From a virus, in UHGV virus genome UHGV-0238489: 34,103 nucleotides of DNA; one strand, given 5' to 3'. Shown in pieces: positions 3,069-34,103 of the stretch. Position 1 is the stretch's first letter; each line of letters begins with the position of its first letter. A model generated the notes under the pieces. The model was not told the DNA's origin and did not search any database. It saw only the letters and a program-made list of their open reading frames with translations. A program made the position numbers and the translations under genes.

Positions 3069-3344
3069 ATGAGTATCCGTATCGAGATAAATCATCAGTA
3101 TGTAGTTACAAGTGATCGCTACCAGTTCATTTTGCAGGAAAAGAAAGTGGCGACTGCTGGAAAAAATGAAGGTAGCGAATGGCTTGATACTGTCGGGTAT
3201 TATCCGACAATTCAAAAACTGGTTTCTGGTCTGGCGCTACATGACCTTTTAAATGGCGGTGCTGATAGTTTTGCGGCGTTGGGTGAGCAGGTCGAGCAGT
3301 TGGGGCTGCAATGTCAGACCGCGTTTTGTGCTGATGGTCGTTGA
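3069..3344 (+). CDS. hypothetical early protein (P2 orf82/83-like)
   Basis: A 91-aa ORF preceded by GGAGA and ending at the A start. Confidence 0.45.
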   Translation: MSIRIEINHQYVVTSDRYQFILQEKKVATAGKNEGSEWLDTVGYYPTIQKLVSGLALHDLLNGGADSFAALGEQVEQLGLQCQTAFCADGR

Positions 3345-5610
3345 GACTCGGGGGCGTATTGTCCCCTCGCTAGCCCTGCCAATATCTAAGCGCACCGGCG
3401 ATACTTTCGTTGGTGCTTATCCCTGGAATGCTCCCCGCGCTGCCATTGGCCGTGACAGACCCCTTACACGTGCCGAATTCCGTCAGGTGCAAGGTGTTTT
3501 ATACCGGATAGACCGCCTGCCTTTCTTTCTTAAGACGTTGTTTACATCCCGTTATAACTTCATTCGCCGCACAAAGAGCCCGCTCGGGGCGCTCTATTTC
3601 CTGAAAAACACCTTTGAGCGGAAGCTGTTGCCGCGTCTTGAGCGCGTTAACGAGCTGTGCGGGATGAATGAATCTGCGTCGAATGGTTTCTTGTCTGAGC
3701 GTGACGAATATGCGTGCTTGCCTGATATGAATGACAAAGAGCTGAAAAAATTTGCGGCCAGAATTGCCGCGCAGCTCTGGCGTAAATACGAGGAACTCAG
3801 CGACGAATGGGCTGAGGCTTTCGGCGGTAAAGAGACCCTTTTCACCGATGAGGCGCAGGCGCACATATATGGTCAGGTGGCCGGTGTTGCACACGCGTTC
3901 AACTTAACCCCGCTCTACTGGAAAAAATACCGTAAGGGTCAGATGACGATCCGCATGGCGTTTTCCGCTATTTCCCGTCTGATAAAAGATGATTGGTGGG
4001 TTAACCAGCTCAAGGCACAGCGTATGCGCTGGCGCGAGGCGCTGCTTATCGCTGCCGGTGAGGTCAACAAAGACCGTTCACCTTACGCAAGCAAAATGGC
4101 GATCCGCGAGGTTCACTCGCGCCGCTTGGCTAATCTCGAATATCTGAAATCCTGCGAACTGGAAAACAAAGTCACCGGCGAACGTATCGACCTTATCAGT
4201 AAAGTCATGGGGAGTATTTCAAACCCTGAAATACGCCGTATGGAGCTGATGAACACCATTGCCGGAATTGAACGCTACGCGGCCAGCGTTGGTGATGTGG
4301 GAATGTTTATCACGCTGACCACGCCGTCGAAGTATCACCCGACCCGACAGGTCGACAAAGGTGACAGCAAAATGGTGCAGCTGAATCACGGCTGGAACGA
4401 AACCGCATTCACCCCTAAAAACGGCCAGCGCTATCTGTGCCGAATCTGGAGTCTGATGCGCACCGCTTTCAAAGATAACGATTTGGAAGTGTATGGGATG
4501 CGCGTTGTCGAGCCGCACCACGACGGCACGCCACACTGGCATATGATGCTTTTTTGCAAACCCGGTCAGCGTAAAGCTATCAACGAAATTATGCGTCGTT
4601 ATGCCCTCAAAGAGGACGGACACGAAAAGGGTGCGGCAAAACAGCGCTTTGAGTCACGCCATCTTAATCAGGGCGGCGCGGCGGGTTATATCGCTAAATA
4701 CATTGCCAAAAATATCGACGGTTACGCTCTCGACGGTCAGCTCGACCACGACACTGGCAAGCCTCTGAAAGATACGGCCGCAGCCGTAACCGCATGGGCG
4801 TCTACATGGCGTATCCCTCAGTTTAAACCGATTGGCCTCCCGACAATGGGCGCTTACCGCGAACTCCGCAAGCTGCCGCGAGGGGTGAGTATCGCCAGCG
4901 AGTTTGACGACCGCGTCGAGGCCGTCCGGGCTGCTGCAGATGAGGGGGAGTTTGACCTGTATATCATCGCGCAGGGTGGGGCAAACAAGCCGCGCAATGC
5001 TCAGTCGGTCAGGGTCGCCCGTAGGGTGACGGATGAGGTTAACGAATACGAGGAAGATATCGATAGGGTGGTCGGTATTTATGCCCCTCACCTTGGGGTG
5101 AGCCGCGTACATGTAACCCGCACAGCGGAATGGCGCATCGTTCCCAAGGTTTTGGCTGTTGAGCCTTTGACCTTAAAAAGCGGCGCTGCCGCGCCTCGGA
5201 GTCCTGTCAATAACTGTGGAAAGCTCACTGGCGGTGATGATCCAGTTATGACACCCACACCGTCTGAACATGCTGCAGCGGTGTTAGATCTGATTGATAA
5301 AGGGCTTATCGCATGGGATGACCCCGAAGTTGTGACGGTGCTCAGGAGCGCATTAAAACACGGCGCGCCGCAGCAAAATCGACAGCAAAGAATAGATGAG
5401 CCATTAAAACCGCATCAGATAGCACCATCAGGACGAATGACAAAAGCCGAGAGGGCTCAGATTCCGCGCATCCGCTTCGGACTGGCGCAGCAGGGTATCA
5501 CGCCGCAGCGGTGGGAACTTCAGGCGCTGGCTCGTGGCGGAATAGTGGTTTATGGCGAAAAAAGATTTGTATACCCGATAGCGGACGAGTGGGTGAAGCA
5601 TGAGGGGTGA
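3334..5610 (+). CDS. A: rolling-circle replication initiator endonuclease (P2 A-like), 758 aa from the ATG at 3334
   Basis: ORF 3253-5610. The in-frame ATG at 3334 overlaps the upstream stop and gives about 758 aa (P2 A is about 761 aa). It carries a HUH-like motif (PHHDGTPHWHMMLF) and an AGYIAKYIAKN tyrosine motif typical of Rep-type relaxases. Confidence 0.85.
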   Translation: MVVETRGRIVPSLALPISKRTGDTFVGAYPWNAPRAAIGRDRPLTRAEFRQVQGVLYRIDRLPFFLKTLFTSRYNFIRRTKSPLGALYFLKNTFERKLLPRLERVNELCGMNESASNGFLSERDEYACLPDMNDKELKKFAARIAAQLWRKYEELSDEWAEAFGGKETLFTDEAQAHIYGQVAGVAHAFNLTPLYWKKYRKGQMTIRMAFSAISRLIKDDWWVNQLKAQRMRWREALLIAAGEVNKDRSPYASKMAIREVHSRRLANLEYLKSCELENKVTGERIDLISKVMGSISNPEIRRMELMNTIAGIERYAASVGDVGMFITLTTPSKYHPTRQVDKGDSKMVQLNHGWNETAFTPKNGQRYLCRIWSLMRTAFKDNDLEVYGMRVVEPHHDGTPHWHMMLFCKPGQRKAINEIMRRYALKEDGHEKGAAKQRFESRHLNQGGAAGYIAKYIAKNIDGYALDGQLDHDTGKPLKDTAAAVTAWASTWRIPQFKPIGLPTMGAYRELRKLPRGVSIASEFDDRVEAVRAAADEGEFDLYIIAQGGANKPRNAQSVRVARRVTDEVNEYEEDIDRVVGIYAPHLGVSRVHVTRTAEWRIVPKVLAVEPLTLKSGAAAPRSPVNNCGKLTGGDDPVMTPTPSEHAAAVLDLIDKGLIAWDDPEVVTVLRSALKHGAPQQNRQQRIDEPLKPHQIAPSGRMTKAERAQIPRIRFGLAQQGITPQRWELQALARGGIVVYGEKRFVYPIADEWVKHEG

Positions 5611-5936: not shown

Positions 5937-6926
5937 ATGAAACCCCTTAGTCTCGAAAAAGCCTTCAATATCGCATTCTTCGAAAAAGATTCCTTTCAAA
6001 ACTTTCTTTCGTTTGAACCATTTCAACAAACTAAATTTATAACCTTTGATGAAAGGTTAATTGCTGAGCCCAGTTCTAAACTAAAAGAGTATCACAAATT
6101 CATAAATGAATTTGTTCTTTCATACTTGAAAGTAAATAAGGATGTTGTGTTTTCGTATAGAAAAGGAAGCAGCACTTATGATGCAGTAAAACTTCATGCC
6201 TGTAGTAAGATATTCTTCAATACTGATATTAAAAACTTTTTCCCGTCGATAACTCGTGAATATGCACGATCAGTTTTAGTTGATAACTTATCGAACGTTC
6301 CCATTTCCGATTTAAATATACATCTGGATAAAATTTTAGATTATATTATTATCGATAATTCGTTGCCTGTAGGGTTCCCAACATCACCAGCTTTCAGCAA
6401 TGCCTGTTTATATGACTTTGATGTTGAGATGCAGCAATATTGTATTAACCATGAATATATATTCACGCGCTATTCAGATGATATTATTATTTCCTCTGAA
6501 AATGATGAGGGGTTTGAGAATATTAATTCTGTAGTAAGTGACCTGCTGGGTGAGTTTGGGAATGGGCATTTCAAACTAAACTCAGCAAAAACTAAATTGA
6601 TTAAAAAAGGCAGTAAGATTAAGCTGCTGGGGATGGTTATTTTACCATCTCAGATAGTCTCTGTTGATATTAAAATAAAAAGAAAACTTGAGCATTTAAT
6701 TCATTTTTATGTAACGGATAAAGATAAATTTATAGATTCTATAATAAAAGATCCTAAAGTTAAAACTAGCGGATTGAATAATAGCGAGATTTTGGAAAAG
6801 GGTGTTAATACAGTTTCTGGTCTTTTAAATCATATAAACACAATTGATAAGAGTTATCTCGATAAGCTAAAGAGAAAATACGGAAATACGATTGTCGATA
6901 TGCTTTTTTACAAGAATGTTAATTAA
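5937..6926 (+). CDS. reverse transcriptase, 329 aa (retron-type or Abi-type defence RT)
   Basis: RT motifs are readable in the translation: motif A NTDIKNFFPSI, motif B' LPVGFPTSPAFSN, motif C YSDD (FTRYSDDIIIS), motif D/E LNSAKTKLI. A NAxxH-like YDAVKLH and a VTG-like VSG are present. AT-rich codon usage contrasts with the phage backbone. Confidence 0.8.
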   Translation: MKPLSLEKAFNIAFFEKDSFQNFLSFEPFQQTKFITFDERLIAEPSSKLKEYHKFINEFVLSYLKVNKDVVFSYRKGSSTYDAVKLHACSKIFFNTDIKNFFPSITREYARSVLVDNLSNVPISDLNIHLDKILDYIIIDNSLPVGFPTSPAFSNACLYDFDVEMQQYCINHEYIFTRYSDDIIISSENDEGFENINSVVSDLLGEFGNGHFKLNSAKTKLIKKGSKIKLLGMVILPSQIVSVDIKIKRKLEHLIHFYVTDKDKFIDSIIKDPKVKTSGLNNSEILEKGVNTVSGLLNHINTIDKSYLDKLKRKYGNTIVDMLFYKNVN

Positions 6927-6927
6927 A

Positions 6928-8280
6928 ATGAAAATAAACATTGAGATCTCAAAAATCCAGCATGTTGAACATATGTCATTTGCTATTGATCTTTCTGAAA
7001 ATAAACTGACTTGCATTGTAGGAAAGAACGGTGCTGGAAAGACAACGTTAATCAAAGCAATTAAAAATTTACAATCAGCAGATACATTCATAAAGACATC
7101 TTCTAGATATATATTCAATCCTGACAGTAGCATAGTATATAATATTAATGATCAAAATATAGTATATGTCTATGATGAGAATTTGAAGGTAATAGACACT
7201 AAGCAAATAATTCCAGCAGATATTAAATCCAATCTTTATGTCGAGTTGCCCATTCCTCATGGAATGAGGTTCAATAACTTCCCAACACTTAGTAAAATTG
7301 ATACAGAACTTAGAAAAAGTATTGCGTTTGAAAACTATAGCGTTCCCGAGGATTTGATAAATATACTCAATGAGGTATATCAGTCTTCTTCTTACAATAA
7401 TCTTAAAGCATTTTCTGTAAAAAATGAAATTTTCTATTTCAGATTGAATGAGAACGGAACATACATAAGGGAGGATTACTTTAGCTCGGGTGAGTATTTC
7501 ATTTTGAATTTATTTAGAATGATTGAGCTCAAAAGAAAGTTCATTGTCATAGATGAGATAGATATATCACTAGACTCTTCGGCGCAAGTCCATCTTATAG
7601 CAGTGCTAAGGAAATATTGTCAGAGACACTCGGTGAATATTGTATTCACAACACATTCACTTGCTTTAATGCAAACGCTGAATGATGATGAATTGTACTA
7701 TATGTGCGAAAGTGATGCTGGAACTACAATTACAAATCGATCCTATAATTATATAAAAAGTACGCTTTTTGGATTTAAAGGATGGGATAAGTACATTCTT
7801 ACTGAAGATGAAGTTCTGCAAAACTTCTTAGAATATATAATTAATGCCTCTGGGAATGATTACTTCTACGAATACAAAATAATATATGTTGGTGGAGGAA
7901 CTAATGTCATTGATTTAATGCGTCGTAATGAGAGAGAGAGCTTTCTCACGACTCAACAGAATGTGATCTCAGTGTTAGACGGAGATCAATTAGGTCAAAG
8001 GCATGCTCGAGGTGAAAATATTTTATGCATACCTTTCCAAAGTGTTGAGAAGGATTTCTATCAAGCATACGGCCAAGATGAATCGATCCCGAGAATTACA
8101 ACTAGAGGTAACGATAAACTTGATAAGCAAGTTTATCGAGGGGTAGTGAAAACCTATAACAACGGTTGGGATGAAACTAGGGTTTTTGAATACCTTGAGA
8201 GGTTAAAGCCTGATGAGTGTGAGGCTTTCAGGCAAAAAATTAGAGCATTTCTCCAAAGAAATATTTCGCCAGAGGGTTGA
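6928..8280 (+). CDS. ABC-type ATPase with C-terminal Toprim-like domain (OLD-family-like nuclease ATPase), about 450 aa
   Basis: Walker A GKNGAGKTT, ABC signature-like FSSGEY, Walker B FIVIDEID, H-loop FTTHS. The C-terminus has a conserved acidic ILTEDE and a DxD VLDGDQ, as in Toprim. Start is 1 nt after the RT stop (alternative upstream ATGs at 6892 and 6916). Confidence 0.7.
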   Translation: MKINIEISKIQHVEHMSFAIDLSENKLTCIVGKNGAGKTTLIKAIKNLQSADTFIKTSSRYIFNPDSSIVYNINDQNIVYVYDENLKVIDTKQIIPADIKSNLYVELPIPHGMRFNNFPTLSKIDTELRKSIAFENYSVPEDLINILNEVYQSSSYNNLKAFSVKNEIFYFRLNENGTYIREDYFSSGEYFILNLFRMIELKRKFIVIDEIDISLDSSAQVHLIAVLRKYCQRHSVNIVFTTHSLALMQTLNDDELYYMCESDAGTTITNRSYNYIKSTLFGFKGWDKYILTEDEVLQNFLEYIINASGNDYFYEYKIIYVGGGTNVIDLMRRNERESFLTTQQNVISVLDGDQLGQRHARGENILCIPFQSVEKDFYQAYGQDESIPRITTRGNDKLDKQVYRGVVKTYNNGWDETRVFEYLERLKPDECEAFRQKIRAFLQRNISPEG

Positions 8281-8608: not shown

Positions 8609-9625
8609 TTATTCTGATTCGAGGCTGTAATCTTTGAAGCGGATCACCTCCATTCCGAGCCAGTCATTTATCTCTTTGAAACGCTCCTGCAGCGGCGTCA
8701 GTTCGTTACGCACAAACACCCGCGCCACCTTCTCAACGTCACCCATTGAACCAATATTCTCAGGCTTGCCGCCCATCAACTGAAACGGCACGCGGTGCGC
8801 ATCGAGCAGGTCGGCGGCGCTCACCTTTTTGATATTGAAAAAATCATCCTTCGTGGCGACTTCACTCAACGGCACAATTTTGATCCCGTCTGGCTTGCCG
8901 TTGGGCGCGTAGAAAAACAAATTTTTGAAATTCCCGAGTCCTTTCGAGTCGCGCATCGCGTTGCGGAGCGATTCAACGTCGGTACTGCTTTGCGCGGCGT
9001 CGGTGACGTACATGATGTATCCCGCGTGTGCGCCATTCTGGTAATACTTGCGGCGAAACAGGGTGGCGGATTCATTCAGCCAGGCGGAATTTAGCGCGCT
9101 CAGGTATTCCGGCATCCCGTACAGCTCCTGATTGATATCAGGCTCAAGCAGATGACACACCGAGCCGGGGGCGAACGGGTGCGGCTGGGTGTAGCTCGAC
9201 ACGTACCAGTAAACGCCATCCTCGACACCCCGGCGGGTGTATTTAGCTGGTGAAGTTTCCAGCTTTAAGAGCTGGCCGGTGACGCTCATGCGCTTCTCAA
9301 GGTAGCCGTTGGCAAATACCAGATAATCGAGTACCAGGCGGCTGAAGTCCTGACGTGACAGCAACGGGTGCGGAATGTAGGTGCTAACCAGAATGTTACG
9401 TTTCACGTAAATCGGGGAACTGTGATGGACGGCGGCGCGCAGGCTTTTTGCCAGTCCCGAGAAGTTGACCGGCGGCTCGTACCATTTCCCGTTATGGATA
9501 CATTCGACGTAATCGAGAATATCGCGGCGATCCAGAACCGGGGAAGGCTCACCAAAAGTAAACGCCTCCATTTTTTGCGGTGCGCTGGCGGTCATTGTGA
9601 CGGGTTTCGTCTGTCGTTTTTTCAT
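8609..9625 (-). CDS. Q: portal protein (P2 Q-like), 338 aa
   Basis: Length and position next to cos, convergent with the terminase gene. Forms the leftward late operon Q-P. Confidence 0.85.
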   Translation of the reverse strand: MKKRQTKPVTMTASAPQKMEAFTFGEPSPVLDRRDILDYVECIHNGKWYEPPVNFSGLAKSLRAAVHHSSPIYVKRNILVSTYIPHPLLSRQDFSRLVLDYLVFANGYLEKRMSVTGQLLKLETSPAKYTRRGVEDGVYWYVSSYTQPHPFAPGSVCHLLEPDINQELYGMPEYLSALNSAWLNESATLFRRKYYQNGAHAGYIMYVTDAAQSSTDVESLRNAMRDSKGLGNFKNLFFYAPNGKPDGIKIVPLSEVATKDDFFNIKKVSAADLLDAHRVPFQLMGGKPENIGSMGDVEKVARVFVRNELTPLQERFKEINDWLGMEVIRFKDYSLESE

Positions 9626-13548: not shown

Positions 13549-14316
13549 ATGACGAGTCCCGCAGCGCGTCACATGATGCGGGTCTCGGCCTCTGAAACTG
13601 CGCGGCGGGCTGCTGCTCCGCTGCGCAATGCAACTGCCTATGAGCAGATGCTCGTCAAGCTGGCCGCAGACTGTCGCACGTTAAAACAAATCCGCTCCAA
13701 CGAGCGCAAGGCAGACAAAAAGCGTGAGCTGCTGCCGTTCTATCTGCCGTGGGTGGCTGGAGTCATCGCCAGTGGTAAAGGGGCGCAGGATGACATCGTC
13801 ATGACCGTCATGCTCTGGCGTCTTGATGCTGATGACATTGCTGGTGCGCTGGACATCGCCCGTTATGCGATGACGTATGGCCTGACCATGCCGACCGGCG
13901 GTCATCGCCGCACCACGCCGTATTTACTGGCCGAAGAGGTCGCACTGTCAGCACAGCGCCTGCTTGATGCAAAACAGCCTGTCGGGCTGTCGCTCCTGCT
14001 CGACACCATCACCCTGACCGAACGCGCAGACATGCCCGATATCGTGCGTGCGAAGCTGCACAAAATCACCGGCTATGTGCTGCGTGATGCTGGCAACCTG
14101 ACTGACGCGCTGGCGCACCTGCAGCGAGCGATCCAGTTAGAGCGGGCTATCGGTGTGAAAAAGGATATTGAGCAGCTTGAACGCGCGCTGAAACCCAAAC
14201 CAGAACCAAAACCAAAACCAGAACCAAAACAGAATAAACCGCGCACGCGCAAACCTGCCGCGAAACCGGCGGCACGGCGCGGGCGTCCCCCGAAAGTGGC
14301 AAAAGCCGCAGGTTAA
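13549..14316 (+). CDS. M: terminase small / endonuclease subunit (P2 M-like), 255 aa, with a C-terminal PEPKPK repeat
   Basis: Position after N. Basic C-terminal tail with (KPEPKP)n low-complexity. Confidence 0.8.
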   Translation: MTSPAARHMMRVSASETARRAAAPLRNATAYEQMLVKLAADCRTLKQIRSNERKADKKRELLPFYLPWVAGVIASGKGAQDDIVMTVMLWRLDADDIAGALDIARYAMTYGLTMPTGGHRRTTPYLLAEEVALSAQRLLDAKQPVGLSLLLDTITLTERADMPDIVRAKLHKITGYVLRDAGNLTDALAHLQRAIQLERAIGVKKDIEQLERALKPKPEPKPKPEPKQNKPRTRKPAAKPAARRGRPPKVAKAAG

Positions 14317-14415
14317 CCGAGCGCTCCCCGAGCCGGGCGGCACGCCGGTCAATGCGGGTATTGATTGCCCTGACTGCGACCGGCGTCCACCGCCCACCCA
14401 TTACCCGAGGTTGTC

Positions 14416-18035: not shown

Positions 18036-19853
18036 ATGGCGAATGGAATAAAGTTTAAAATGAATTTTATAAATAAAATGCTTAGATCGACTACTATAGA
18101 CTTTAAGAGAAAAACCTTTTATCTAGATTTTCTATTTCTTTTTGTTTGTGTTTGGACGCTTATCTCTTCTGGTTCTGAAGTTCAATATTATCTTTTTAAA
18201 TTTATTGGTAGTGATAGTTCCACCCTTTACGGCAGCGTCTTTGAAGATGCTATAGCCCGGATGCCTACATTTAATCAATATATAAAGGGTGCTTACACAG
18301 TCTCTGGTAATTTCGGTTTTATTGCTGCGCTGCTTATAGTCGCTGTGTCTTTGTTTTATCAGAGTGCGATACAGGTGTTTATCGTTTGTGTTATTAGTTC
18401 AGTGTTTGGATTGACGATAACAGATATTGTTATGTTCGTTTTTAACGATACTCTAACTACGCAATCAGTTACTGAAAGCATAATTGCGAATACATTGGGT
18501 TCGCCTATAATTGCAAGTTTCGTTGTTTTCCTGTTTTGTATAAAAAAGATTCTCTTTGGGGCTGTTAATGTTAATTTAGCTTTTCGCTTTGTTATGAGTT
18601 ATATAGTTTATGTTTTATTGTGTTCTTTAATATTATTGATTACTTACTACGTTGTATGTTTTTTCTACAGACCAACAGCTGTAAATTTTTCTGTATCAAC
18701 TTCAGAAGATTTTTCAGGGGATTATTTTATTACGCAAAAAGATAAGGCCTCGAAAAAAGACGACCCTGAGAAACAAAAACGCTTTTCATTGTTAGGTTCT
18801 CCCGTTGAAATAAATGAGTCTGTACGTGTTTATGGAGACATTAAAACTATAAGGTCAAAAACACATGAAAATGAAACCTTTAATTTAAAAATACTACCAT
18901 TACTTAATTGCATAGATGGCAGTTCAGTTAACGCTGCATCATCTAGATCTTTAACGTATAGCAATGTGAAAAATTTATCCATTAAATCGTCCGAGCTCAT
19001 CTCAATACTACTTATAAATGACAAGGTTGGTCATGTTAAAAGTAGTGACGAGCTTGTAAATATGTTTTCTGTTAAAAAGAATGACAGAAATGGATTTGAT
19101 GTTACAAAAATTAATGATGGTGCTTTTAGTTATTATCCATCCGAGTCTAACGCCGGGTTCTATATGGCTACGCCAGTGTCGGAATTTACAGGGGATCAAG
19201 CCAAGAAGATTGTCCAATATACATTGGATATTGATGGCGCTGAAAAAACAATTAGCGTTGAAGTTGAAAGGCTACGTTCAATAAATAAAGATAAGAAAAT
19301 GCACTGCGAAGTTGCATCTTTCAGAGATTCTGACGGTGATATTAACATAAAGGCTGATGAATCTGTATATCTTGGTCTTCTTGTTAAGATGGAATCAGAA
19401 GAGGAGAAGGAATTCTACTCACTTTTTAATGAAGATAATAGCAAAATTGTAGTGGATGGAAATTTACTATATGTCCAGGCTCAAAAAGTTCCGAAAGAAG
19501 ATTTGCTTGGGAAGTATTTTGTTAAAGGTTATCTGGATGGATTTATTCTCCATTCATTTGATAAATTATCATTAGATGGGAGAAATGTAGAGTCTAATAA
19601 GATGGATAACCTGATGGTCATGGGTGATGATATATATGCAAGTGTATCTGATGGGACTAACTTGGTAATAAGCGGTAGGGCTGATCTTTTTTATAAAAAT
19701 AGGCTACGGCAAAATAAAACATTATGGGAGTCGTCAAGTGATAATACGCTAATACTTGGCGGGCTTGGTGGATTGCTGGTTTCATTATTGTTGTGGGGAA
19801 GTAATAAAATTTTTACAACTCTACGTAAAAATGAAGTTATTAATATGTTTTAA
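18036..19853 (+). CDS. polytopic membrane protein of unknown function, 605 aa; cargo gene in an AT-rich island between S and V
   Basis: About five N-terminal TM helices, a roughly 350-aa hydrophilic domain and a C-terminal TM (LILGGLGGLLVSLLLWG). Strongly AT-rich codon usage unlike flanking phage genes. I recognise no catalytic motif. Confidence 0.6.
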   Translation: MANGIKFKMNFINKMLRSTTIDFKRKTFYLDFLFLFVCVWTLISSGSEVQYYLFKFIGSDSSTLYGSVFEDAIARMPTFNQYIKGAYTVSGNFGFIAALLIVAVSLFYQSAIQVFIVCVISSVFGLTITDIVMFVFNDTLTTQSVTESIIANTLGSPIIASFVVFLFCIKKILFGAVNVNLAFRFVMSYIVYVLLCSLILLITYYVVCFFYRPTAVNFSVSTSEDFSGDYFITQKDKASKKDDPEKQKRFSLLGSPVEINESVRVYGDIKTIRSKTHENETFNLKILPLLNCIDGSSVNAASSRSLTYSNVKNLSIKSSELISILLINDKVGHVKSSDELVNMFSVKKNDRNGFDVTKINDGAFSYYPSESNAGFYMATPVSEFTGDQAKKIVQYTLDIDGAEKTISVEVERLRSINKDKKMHCEVASFRDSDGDINIKADESVYLGLLVKMESEEEKEFYSLFNEDNSKIVVDGNLLYVQAQKVPKEDLLGKYFVKGYLDGFILHSFDKLSLDGRNVESNKMDNLMVMGDDIYASVSDGTNLVISGRADLFYKNRLRQNKTLWESSSDNTLILGGLGGLLVSLLLWGSNKIFTTLRKNEVINMF

Positions 19854-22519: not shown

Positions 22520-24205
22520 ATGACAGTGAAATATAAAACCGTTATCACCAAAGCCGGTGCGGAAAAACTGGCGGCGGCGACGCTCCCGAACGGGAAGAAA
22601 GTCAATTTTGCGGCGATGGCCGTCGGGGATGGTGGCGGAAAACTGCCCGAGCCGGACGCCAGCCAGACAAAACTCGTCAATGAGGTCTGGCGTCATGCGT
22701 TGAACAAAATCAGCCTGGACAAAAAACATAAAAATTATGTCGTGGCGGAGCTGGTGATCCCCCCGGAGACCGGCGGTTTCTGGCTGCGTGAAATGGGGCT
22801 TTACGATGACACCGGCACGCTGATTGCGGTCGGCAATATGGCCGAAAGTTATAAGCCCGAACTGGCGGAAGGGTCAGGCCGCGCACAGACGCTGCGCATG
22901 GTGATCATGGTGAGCGATATCGACACTGTCGAGCTGTCCATAGATACGACACTGGTGATGGCGACGCAGGATTATGTCGACGATAAACTCGCAGAGCATG
23001 AGCAGTCCCGTCGCCATCCTGACGCCACGCTGAAAGAAAAAGGGTTCACGCAGTTAAGCAGTGCGACCGACAGCACGTCTGAGGCGCTCGCCGCGACACC
23101 GAAAGCGGTTAAGGCGGCGTATGACCTTGCAAAAGGTAAATACTCGGCTCAGGACGCGACCACGGCGCAGAAAGGGATTGTTCAGCTCAGCAGCGCCATC
23201 GACAGCGTGTCTGAGACGCTCGCCGCAACGCCAAAAGCGGTGAAAGCGGCGAATGATAATGCTGATGGCCGCGTTCCTTCCTCGCGCAAAATTAACGGAC
23301 ACTCCCTGAATGCTGACACCAGTGTCACCTCGCAGGATATTTTCGACGACCAGGCTATTGGGCTGGTAACGGAGGATTTAGACACCCTTAAAACGCCGGG
23401 TATTTACTTTCAGCCAGCGAATTCTAATACCTCAGCCGCCAGACATTACCCTGAAAATAACGCCGGGACGCTGGTCATTTATAAAAATGCCGGAGTGACT
23501 CAGGTATACCGGGTTTATAACAGCTCCCGGAGCTACTCGCGCAGCCAGTATTCAACAGGCGCATGGACACCGTGGACGCCTGATGATGTTTTTCCGGTAG
23601 GCGCTCCCGTTGCGTGGCCGTCTGACAGTGTTCCTGCTGGCTATGCCGTCATGCAGGGACAAACTTTTGATAAAGTCGCGTATCCGCTGCTTGCTGTGGT
23701 GTACCCATCGGGTGTTATTCCTGATATGCGGGGCTGGACAATCAAAGGTAAACCCGCAAGTGGGCGCGCTATTTTGTCTCAGGAGCAGGACGGCATTAAA
23801 TCGCACGCCCACGGTGCCAGCGCATCGAGCACCGATTTAGGGACGAAAACCACCAGTGCTTTTGACCACGGAACGAAAACTACCACGACCTTTGACTACG
23901 GGACAAAAACCACTAATGCAACCGGCAACCATGCGCACACTTTTACCGTACACCGGGGAGATCAGGCCGGGGGACAGGCCGCCGACGGTAACGAAATAGC
24001 GACGGGAACGAAAACAACATCAACTGCAGGTAATCACGCGCATACCGTGGCGATTGGTGCCCACAATCATAATGTCGGGATTGGCGCACACTCGCACTCC
24101 GTTGCTATTGGCGCACACGGTCACACCATTACGATCGCCGCGTCGGGTAATGCAGAAAACACCATCAAAAACATCGCATTTAACTATATCGTGAGACTCG
24201 CATAA
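22520..24205 (+). CDS. H: tail fibre protein H-like, 561 aa, with internal repeats and C-terminal HxH repeats
   Basis: Conserved N-terminal region ([21 protein letters not shown]...) typical of P2-family H. Tandem [20 protein letters not shown] motif. C-terminal GNHAHT / IGAHxH repeats. Confidence 0.8.
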
Positions 24206-31980: not shown

Positions 31981-33896
31981 GTATGTGCGCCGGGCATGGC
32001 GCGTAGCGCCGTGACTGGCGCTGTTCTTCAACTGTGGTGGCTGAAGAACGACTAAGAGGTGAAAGTCCTCCACACACCCGGTGAGGGGAAGTGTTAGCGG
32101 AAGGCAAGGGTGTTCATCGCGAGGTGAAATCTGAAGGAAGCCGGATGCAAAATGCTGGCCTGACGAACAGGAAGCGGTTAAGGCGGCGCAGCGGGGTAAG
32201 GTGGCATACATCACCAAAGCCCGATACTCACACGGAACGCTGTGACGTAGAGCCGACAGGCATAAGCAGGAAAGTCGCGCGAATTACCCCGGGAGATCTG
32301 CCGTCCTGTCAGTGTGCTACCGGCGTCGTAAGGTGCCGGGATGGGGCGGCAGAAGTCAGCCGACGCTGTAGTAGTGCTGCAAAACCGGCAGCATGAAGGG
32401 CCGAACATGATTAACCGTGATTAGGACATCCGAACCCGATGATGATTAATGAAGCACAAGCGCAGGCAACTGCGGCCAGCGGCAGAGGAGACGGACGGTA
32501 TCCGTCAGGGCTGCATGATGGCGCTGAAATCAGCACGGCGGCGGGTGGGCAAACGAAAGCGGAAGTGCCGCTGACGATGGAAGCGGTGATAACGAGAGAA
32601 AACCTGATGCTGGCTTATCAGCGCGTGGTGGAAAACAAAGGCGCGGCGGGGGTGGATAACCTCAGCGTGGCGGAGTTGAAACCGTGGCTGAAGAAGAACT
32701 GGCGCAGTGTCAGGCAGGCATTGATTGACGGAAACTACCAGCCGCGGGCAATACGCCGGATGGATATCCCGAAGCCGGATGGCGGCGTGAGAATCTTAGG
32801 CATCCCGACGGTGGTGGACAGGCTTATCCAGCAGGCGATAGCGCAGCAGTTAAGCGCCATCGTGGACAAAAGCTTCTCAGACTCCAACGGCTTCCGGCCG
32901 GGGCGCAACGCATGGCAGGCGGTGCAACAGGCACAGCGTTACATACGGGGCGGCAAACGGTGGGTGGTGGATATGGATCTGGAGAAGTTCTTTGACCGGG
33001 TGGATCACAGACTCCTGATGACGCGTCTGGCCAGAACGATAAAGGACAGGCGGGTGCTGAGACTGATACGCCGCTACCTGAAAGCGGAAATAGTCCGGGA
33101 CGGGCAAAGGGAGAAACGGCAGGAGGGCATGCCGCAGGGCGGCCCGCTGTCGCCGTTACTGTCGAACATCCTGCTGGATGAACTGGATAAAGAACTGGAG
33201 CGTCGTTGACACAGCTTCTGCCGCTACGCAGACGACTGCAACATCAACGTAAGCAGCCGGAAAGCGGGCGACCATCTGCTGAAGAACATCAGGGCGTTCG
33301 TGGAGAACAAAATGAAACTGAAGGTGAATGAGAAGAAGAGCGCGGTGGCGCGCCCGTGGGAGCGGAAGTTCCTCGGGTACAGTGTGACATGGCACAAACA
33401 GGCGAAGCTGAAAATAGCCCTGACGAGCGTGAACAGGCTGAAGGAGAAAGTCCGCAGTCTGACCACGGGAAACCGGAGCAAATCAGTGAAAGCGACAATC
33501 AATGCCCTGACGCCAGTGCTGCGTGGATGGATAAGCTACTTCAGGCTGACGGAAGTCAGAGGAGTGCAGGAAGAGCTGGACGGCTGGATCAAACGGAAAC
33601 TGCGGTGCCTGTTGTGGCGGCAGTGGAAGAGGCCGGGAACCCGGACGAAGAACCTGCAAAGAGCGGGGCTGAGTAAGGACAGGGCGATGATCTCAGCGTA
33701 CAACAACCATGGGCCATGGTGGAACTCAGGGTCAAGCCATATGAATCAGGCGATAAAGAATGCGTGGTTCAGCAGGCAGGGTCTGATATCACTGCTGGAA
33801 CAGCAGAGGCAGTTCCAGTGTTAACATGAACCGCCGTATGCGGAGCCGCATGTACGGTGGTGTGAGAGGACGGCGGGAGTGATCCCGCCTCCTACT
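31981..33896 (+). mobile_element. group II intron (bacterial, class C-like), about 1.9 kb, inserted just after an intrinsic terminator
   Basis: GTGCG-like 5' end at 31986. An RT/maturase ORF sits inside. Domain V-like hairpin at about 33829-33860 (ccgtatgcgg-agc-cgcatgtacgg) and a domain VI-like bulged hairpin at about 33864-33895. Insertion after a terminator stem-loop is typical of IIC introns. Boundaries are approximate (about +/-10 nt). Confidence 0.7.
32439..33824 (+). pseudogene. group II intron-encoded RT/maturase interrupted by a single in-frame TGA (33207-33209)
   Basis: ORFs 32439-33209 and 33300-33824 are in the same frame. The sequence reads ...LDELDKELERR-TGA-HSFCRYADDCNINV..., so the stop replaces the codon just before the YADD motif. 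RT motifs (GIPTVVDRLIQQA, LPQGGPLSPLLSNILL) precede a maturase-like C-terminus. Confidence 0.7.
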
Positions 33897-33961
33897 CGAT
33901 CGATGTGGTCAATGTGTGGACATTGTAATAAATAAATCCATTTATTTCATTAGGTTAGAAC

Positions 33962-33984
33962 AAAAAAATAAGCCCGTGTAAGGG
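33962..33984. repeat. attR: att core copy (attR side, next to ogr)
   Basis: Exact 23-bp direct repeat of 159-181. The right copy continues as agatt, matching the P2 core as I recall it. Confidence 0.75.
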
Positions 33985-34103
33985 AGATTACACAGGCTAA
34001 GGAGGTGGTTCCTGGTACAGCTAGCATTTTATGGGTTATGTTTTTCAGCGAAACGGATGATAACCTTAATAAATGCAGCTGTATGTGATCGGTTTCTAAG
34101 AAT

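Follow-up and report, generated by a model that had tools for sequence, protein, structure and literature searches.

Phage P2 gpM and phage 186 gpR belong to the same family of small terminase subunits and share the gene order N-M-L. Both have the same layout, in which a helical core is followed by a KPKPExxP run and by a basic tail ending in (K/R)RGRP(P/K)K. The run is short and imperfect in the described members, reading KPKTEAAPRK in 186 R (249 aa) and KPKPEPQPK in P2-type gpM (247 aa). No paper on the C-terminus of gpM came up in our literature searches. In solved structures of small terminases the C-termini are generally disordered, and in HK97 and P22 the C-terminal segment participates in DNA binding (PMC11331095). 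The viral genome UHGV-0238489 (34,103 nt; hereafter the window, meaning the whole stretch of DNA that was analyzed) encoded a gpM of this family, with the same gene order and layout and with full-length collinearity, but with a perfect duplicated KPKPEP unit in place of the short imperfect run and a length of 255 aa. The repeat is an ordinary in-frame coding repeat polymorphism, and its 7-unit form in the window is a new allele of a well-known type of feature.

The prophage and its small terminase

The whole window was a P2/186-like prophage, matching a prophage of Escherichia coli A15 at 99.778% identity over 29,316 nt. The A15 counterpart adjoins yegR, which is also what the left window edge abuts in A15, and a CyaR/RyeE sRNA gene lay at the right window edge (33,966 to 34,051, minus strand); the prophage thus appears to sit at the yegR-cyaR locus of the chromosome. 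A type I-B retron gene pair (5,937 to 6,926 and 6,928 to 8,280, plus strand; RT_I-B 8e-111 and ATPase-Toprim_I-B 1e-179 by PADLOC) was situated between the replication gene (3,253 to 5,610) and the portal gene (8,609 to 9,625), a position known as the cos-proximal defense hotspot of P2-like phages (PMC9122126). A search with Rfam at gathering thresholds gave no msr/msd RNA. Group II intron RNA domains extended from 32,113 to 33,900 on the plus strand, near the right window end and past the last of the large phage ORFs (RF02001 at 32,113 to 32,282, RF01998 at 32,317 to 32,401, and RF00029 at 33,829 to 33,900), and the two ORFs that they flank (32,439 to 33,209 and 33,300 to 33,824) may represent an intron-encoded protein that is split or degraded. 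Between baseplate gene V and the virion-morphogenesis gene lay an ORF of 605 aa (18,036 to 19,853, plus strand); it is hypothetical in A15, gave no PADLOC match, and may be an accessory (moron) gene.

By its sequence, the ORF at 13,549 to 14,316 (plus strand, 255 aa) is a small terminase subunit gene of the P2 gpM/186 gpR type. Its product matched PF05944 (Phage_term_smal) with 145 bits against a cutoff of 29.4, residues 35 to 164 covering profile positions 1 to 129 of 130, and matched phrog_74 ('terminase small subunit') at 5.7e-95. Along the whole gene, nucleotide identity to 186 R and PSP3 M was 74%, and the gene is an annotated CDS in the A15 prophage; the RefSeq name for this type is 'terminase endonuclease subunit'. 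It lay between the genes for the P2-family major capsid protein (N, PF05125, 12,448 to 13,545) and the head completion protein gpL (PF05926, 14,416 to 14,922), with the portal and terminase ATPase genes upstream on the minus strand according to the ORF layout and the A15 annotation, which is the position of this gene in P2-type head operons. The first-pass annotation, made from the sequence alone, had labeled the product a small terminase, and the profile matches, the P2-type gene order, and the collinearity with 186 R and P2 M all bear this out.

An AlphaFold2 model built from a 36-sequence alignment (mean pLDDT 81, pTM 0.71) predicted an all-helical core, in which most of residues 31 to 210 had block-mean pLDDT values above 90; the values fell to 80 and 67 at the loops of residues 71 to 80 and 111 to 120. 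The last predicted core helix (residues 204 to 214, KDIEQLERAL; 14,158 to 14,190, plus strand) ended directly upstream of the repeat. From residue 215 onward the chain was modeled as coil, with pLDDT falling from 78 to ~41 and staying below 50 for residues 227 to 255; disorder and an extended conformation of the linker are predictions. An exhaustive search without profiles, across 1.84 billion representatives, retrieved 1003 relatives, and the alignments to 50%-identity cluster representatives (n = 130 reaching the C-terminal part) mostly stopped at query residues ~214 to 220. Beyond this point, those 130 relatives carried anything from 0 to ~100 aa of unrelated low-complexity sequence, variously acidic, rich in Pro/Ala/Thr, or basic. 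Since both the helix and the homology end here, the repeat begins where the conserved fold gives way to an extension that is hypervariable and presumably disordered, in agreement with the disordered C-termini of solved small terminases (PMC11331095).

A search of PDB sequences gave no homologue of gpM (best E-value 0.68), and Foldseek against the PDB returned only weak TPR matches to the core (E 0.01 to 0.08, TM ~0.3), with no solved small terminase among them. Pfam TPR matches below threshold were also seen at residues 168 to 202. On the strength of the model, residues 1 to 214 (13,549 to 14,190) may adopt a non-canonical, TPR-like all-alpha small-terminase architecture. With no PDB homologue and only weak TPR-like matches, DNA binding by the gpM family appears to be structurally uncharacterized.

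Repeat structure and copy-number alleles

Read in frame, positions 14,191 to 14,232 (plus strand) consisted of seven NNNCCN hexamers, AAACCC AAACCA GAACCA AAACCA AAACCA GAACCA AAACAG, encoding KP KP EP KP KP EP KQ (KPKPEPKPKPEPKQ), residues 215 to 228 of the 255 in gpM. Tandem Repeats Finder (TRF) reported the array at 14,191 to 14,230 with a period of 18 nt (unit AAACCNAAACCAGAACCA), 2.2 copies, 95% matches, and a score of 73, and reported it again at periods of 12 and 6. This score was the second highest in the window. The top-scoring tandem repeat (23,843 to 23,913; period 30, 2.4 copies, 78% matches, score 86) lay inside the ORF at 22,520 to 24,205, which corresponds to a 'phage tail protein' CDS in A15 and is likely a tail fiber gene. 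A score of at least 73 anywhere in the window arose in only 1 of 100 dinucleotide-preserving shuffles, so that the gpM repeat exceeds chance and has the adjacent high-identity copies, at least two, that are expected of a variable-number tandem repeat. Only two to three of its units were perfect. The 12-mer CCAAAACCAGAA occurred exactly once, at 14,212, with a one-mismatch copy from 14,194; the starts of these copies were 18 nt apart with 6 nt between them, and the array is therefore best described as a duplicated 18-nt KPKPEP unit that is itself built of X-Pro hexamers. Two minus-strand ORFs across the repeat (14,137 to 14,397, reading FWFW..., and 14,147 to 14,401, reading LVLV...) are mechanical by-products of it.

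A tandem repeat at this place had been noted in the first-pass annotation, and both TRF and direct reading recovered it, with some changes to its description. A hexamer-built repeat was correctly seen, but the 12-mer put forward as its unit is present exactly only once and the true period is 18. The proposed (KPEPKP)n coding holds in that the peptide contains (KPEPKP)x2, although the last P is a Q. The repeat does encode a proline/lysine low-complexity segment near the C-terminal end; it is not the terminal tail of the protein, as had been supposed, but an internal linker that is followed by a conserved basic tail of 27 aa.

Pairwise alignment of the window with the A15 prophage showed 58 substitutions, scattered across the element, and only two indels. 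One indel was a hexamer in gpM; the other was a difference between A7 and A6 in the run at window position 159. The A7 run (~153 to 159; A6 in A15) lies in the loop of the inverted repeat GGGCTTATGCATAAAAAAATAAGCCC. Both indels fall in simple repeats, which are classic slippage substrates, and by our arithmetic the chance that one of two random indels over 29.3 kb hits the 40-nt array is ~0.003. The A15 gene was 762 nt long compared with 768 nt in the window, differing by two substitutions and by the absence of one AAACCA, and its peptide was KPKPEPKPEPKQ, with six units. The missing unit can be assigned to one of two identical neighboring AAACCA (KP) hexamers at 14,209 to 14,220 (plus strand), though the 6-nt gap can be placed in more than one way and BLAST puts it at 14,204 to 14,209. 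Copy number therefore differed, seven against six, between genomes that are 99.78% identical, as would be expected of a variable-number repeat.

We evaluated the repeat in 5,426 complete E. coli genomes, 52 of which carried this gpM clade. A 217-nt query segment of the window corresponded to 205 nt in 50 of these, to 202 nt in KV7, whose tail has a separate deletion of 3 nt, and to 211 nt in A15. A 5-unit allele was thus present in 51 of the 52, reading AAACCC AAACCA GAACCC GCACC(A/C) AAACAG (KPKPEPAPKQ, five imperfect units), and the same 5-unit version was found in Citrobacter youngae and Lelliottia. Judged from these sequences, the repeat of the window is an insertion relative to the common allele. 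The 6-unit protein was found, identical, on 23 contigs from several sources, while the 7-unit protein of the window was absent from ~15 billion sequences. An exact-pattern scan of metagenome and viral contig collections gave no match to the expanded-allele junction CCAGAACCAAAACAGAATAAACC, and searching proteins with only the final 65 residues (100 candidates scored) gave no further expanded alleles, the nine partial proteins returned all having the 5-unit linker. The change from five to six units requires either a 6-nt gain with several substitutions or a 12-nt duplication with a 6-nt loss; no intermediate allele was found in the sequences searched, and no single-step route could be reconstructed. 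Copy-number variation was seen only in the sublineage whose units had turned into perfect repeats, and the wider clade showed five imperfect units throughout. The expectation that copy number may vary between isolates was thus borne out by comparison across related prophages, with seven units here, six in A15, and five in 51 further E. coli genomes.

The linker has also changed length independently in other lineages (KPKPEPAPKAEAAPKVNKP, KPKPEPAPKADEKPKVNKP, KPKAETAPRQPRQKVKTTKP, TKTTKP insertions, and insertions of TK or TT), giving gpM proteins of 249, 251, 253, 255, and 256 aa with a constant tail. A separate gpM lineage in Enterobacter, Leclercia, and E. coli (255 to 256 aa) carried an older, diverged duplication, KPKPEPAPK-AEAAPK-VNKP, in the same linker, which shows an independent expansion at the same site. 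In viral contigs, a degenerate KPKPEPKPKPEPK DNA pattern matched 13 loci, all of them spacers in unrelated proteins, such that KPKPEP repeats also act as spacers outside this family; searched with tblastn, none of the 13 encoded a gpM relative.

Spacer length and the basic tail

Beyond the repeat, 14,233 to 14,313 (plus strand) encoded a conserved basic tail, NKPRTRKPAAKPAARRGRPPKVAKAAG, that was near-identical in all 186-type relatives. The 41 residues from position 215 on included 11 Pro, 10 Lys, and 5 Arg, with a net charge of +13. AT-hooks have a core of R-G-R-P flanked by basic residues. The tail contained such a core with Lys/Arg flanks in RRGRPPK (R243 to K249; 14,275 to 14,295, plus strand), as read directly and from the 36-sequence alignment, in which K235, G245, R246, P247, and K249 were invariant. 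The equivalent motif was KRGRPKKK in P2-type gpM and KRGRGRPRK in a 61%-identical representative. The Pfam AT_hook profile gave no match on the tail at E-values up to 10, HMMER filters being known to drop such short weak matches, and our literature searches found no paper tying AT-hooks to small terminases. The basic tail is probably involved in binding nucleic acid or a partner protein.

We consider it likely that the array is a small in-frame variable-number repeat in a disordered gpM linker, born of slippage, tolerated in its length, and most likely neutral. In one sublineage of E. coli, the X-Pro units have turned into perfect AAACCA/GAACCA repeats, after which replication slippage (slipped-strand mispairing) or unequal recombination between adjacent identical hexamers could add or remove units. 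Alternating X-Pro dipeptides would form an extended, non-globular spacer that keeps the basic tail away from the helical core, and whose exact length may be of little importance. A change in copy number would be kept because the spacer is extended rather than folded. At an assumed polyproline-II rise of ~3 Å per residue, the linker of the window would be at most ~6 Å longer than that of A15 and ~12 Å longer than that of the common allele. The repeat had been described as slippage-prone, which fits the one-unit difference between near-identical prophages, but the 6-unit protein was identical on all 23 contigs; the slippage rate is therefore not high, and the site is a mild warm spot and not a hypermutable locus.

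A functional tuning of spacer length, in which the X-Pro rod would determine how far the AT-hook-like tail reaches toward cos DNA or the large terminase, with the expansion as an adaptive change, for example to a partner protein or a P4-like satellite, is unlikely in our assessment. In its favor, the linker varies next to invariant tail residues (K235, G245-R246-P247, and K249), the tail motif recurs in P2-type gpM and in the 61%-identical representative, a short KPKPExxP run is conserved across the P2 and 186 clades, and C-terminal regions of other small terminases do contribute to DNA binding (PMC11331095). Against it, 51 of the 52 E. coli relatives have retained five units, linker residues and lengths drift freely between lineages, and many family members have no tail at all; nor could any other terminase or portal gene difference between the window and A15 be tied to the repeat change. 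A more specific version, which we consider very unlikely, is that the X-Pro run joins with the invariant RGRP tail to make a tethered AT-hook-like minor-groove arm by which a non-canonical, TPR-like small terminase would touch cos DNA, with the spacer repeat setting its reach and copy-number alleles altering the specificity or efficiency of packaging, e.g., toward P4-like satellites that share cos.

Either genome could in principle carry an assembly error that accounts for the one-unit difference, and the whole copy-number difference could be a sequencing or assembly artifact without any real polymorphism. Each expanded allele did occur in only one of the complete E. coli genomes, the 7-unit protein was missing from the ~15 billion proteins searched, and the second indel between the window and A15 is a homopolymer-length difference, typical of sequencing error. 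A clean, in-frame difference of one 6-nt unit is, however, not typical of either short-read or long-read assembly errors, and the 23 contigs with the 6-unit protein are independent and come from several sources, so that at least the polymorphism between five and six units is real; we regard an artifact as very unlikely. The repeat, being simple in sequence, variable in copy number, and inside a coding region, might be suspected of phase variation, as a contingency locus that turns terminase expression or the reading frame on and off. However, the unit is 6 nt, and every change in copy number therefore stays in frame and leaves no on/off switch; the 7-, 6-, and 5-unit alleles all encoded full-length proteins with the same tail, and only two to three units were perfect. 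We therefore rejected this candidate, whose probability we place close to nil. Slippage in a length-tolerant spacer remains our preferred reading, with the expansion itself most likely selectively neutral.

For the prophage lineage itself, the repeat could serve as a fine-scale typing marker within one E. coli P2/186-like lineage, and it marks the boundary in gpM between the folded core and the disordered tail. Any wider relevance is indirect, in that it points to a conserved AT-hook-like tail in a small-terminase family that lacks a solved structure and whose TPR-like fold appears non-canonical. Such a tail might account for the contact of P2-family terminases with DNA.

Comparison with known systems

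A close relative of the window protein was A15 gpM (WP_201489198.1), a 6-unit allele at the same chromosomal locus by yegR and with the same homogenized AAACCA/GAACCA units. It differed from the window protein in having one KP unit fewer and in a change from A to V at window residue 238, in the tail.

Outside the family, the closest analogue of the linker was the (Glu-Pro)n/(Lys-Pro)n spacer of TonB, which likewise consists of alternating X-Pro dipeptides with E and K. In TonB, this run is an extended, rigid spacer that joins two functional parts and tolerates changes in length. The likeness is one of analogy and not of homology: the gpM linker is much shorter (14 residues), cytoplasmic, and joins a terminase core to a basic tail. 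When the TonB-type polyproline spacer was tried as a candidate, TonB_N (PF16031) reached only E = 4 and 8.5 bits against a cutoff of 33, the resemblance being compositional only.

As a class of variation, the repeat resembles in-frame coding variable-number repeats, for example the Ser-Asp repeats of staphylococcal surface proteins, which likewise undergo copy-number change that keeps the frame (through a 6-nt or 18-nt unit in gpM) in a non-globular spacer (PMC3324548). Compared with these, the gpM repeat has far fewer units (two to three perfect ones), is not at the cell surface, and is much less mutable because it has far fewer perfect copies. We found no evidence for host-interaction selection on the gpM repeat.

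The small terminases of HK97, G20c, 44RR, E217, and P22 offer a structural comparison. Their C-terminal tens of residues are unordered in the free protein, as is predicted for the gpM extension, but these proteins form rings and have a different core fold, whereas the core of gpM is predicted to be all-alpha and TPR-like.
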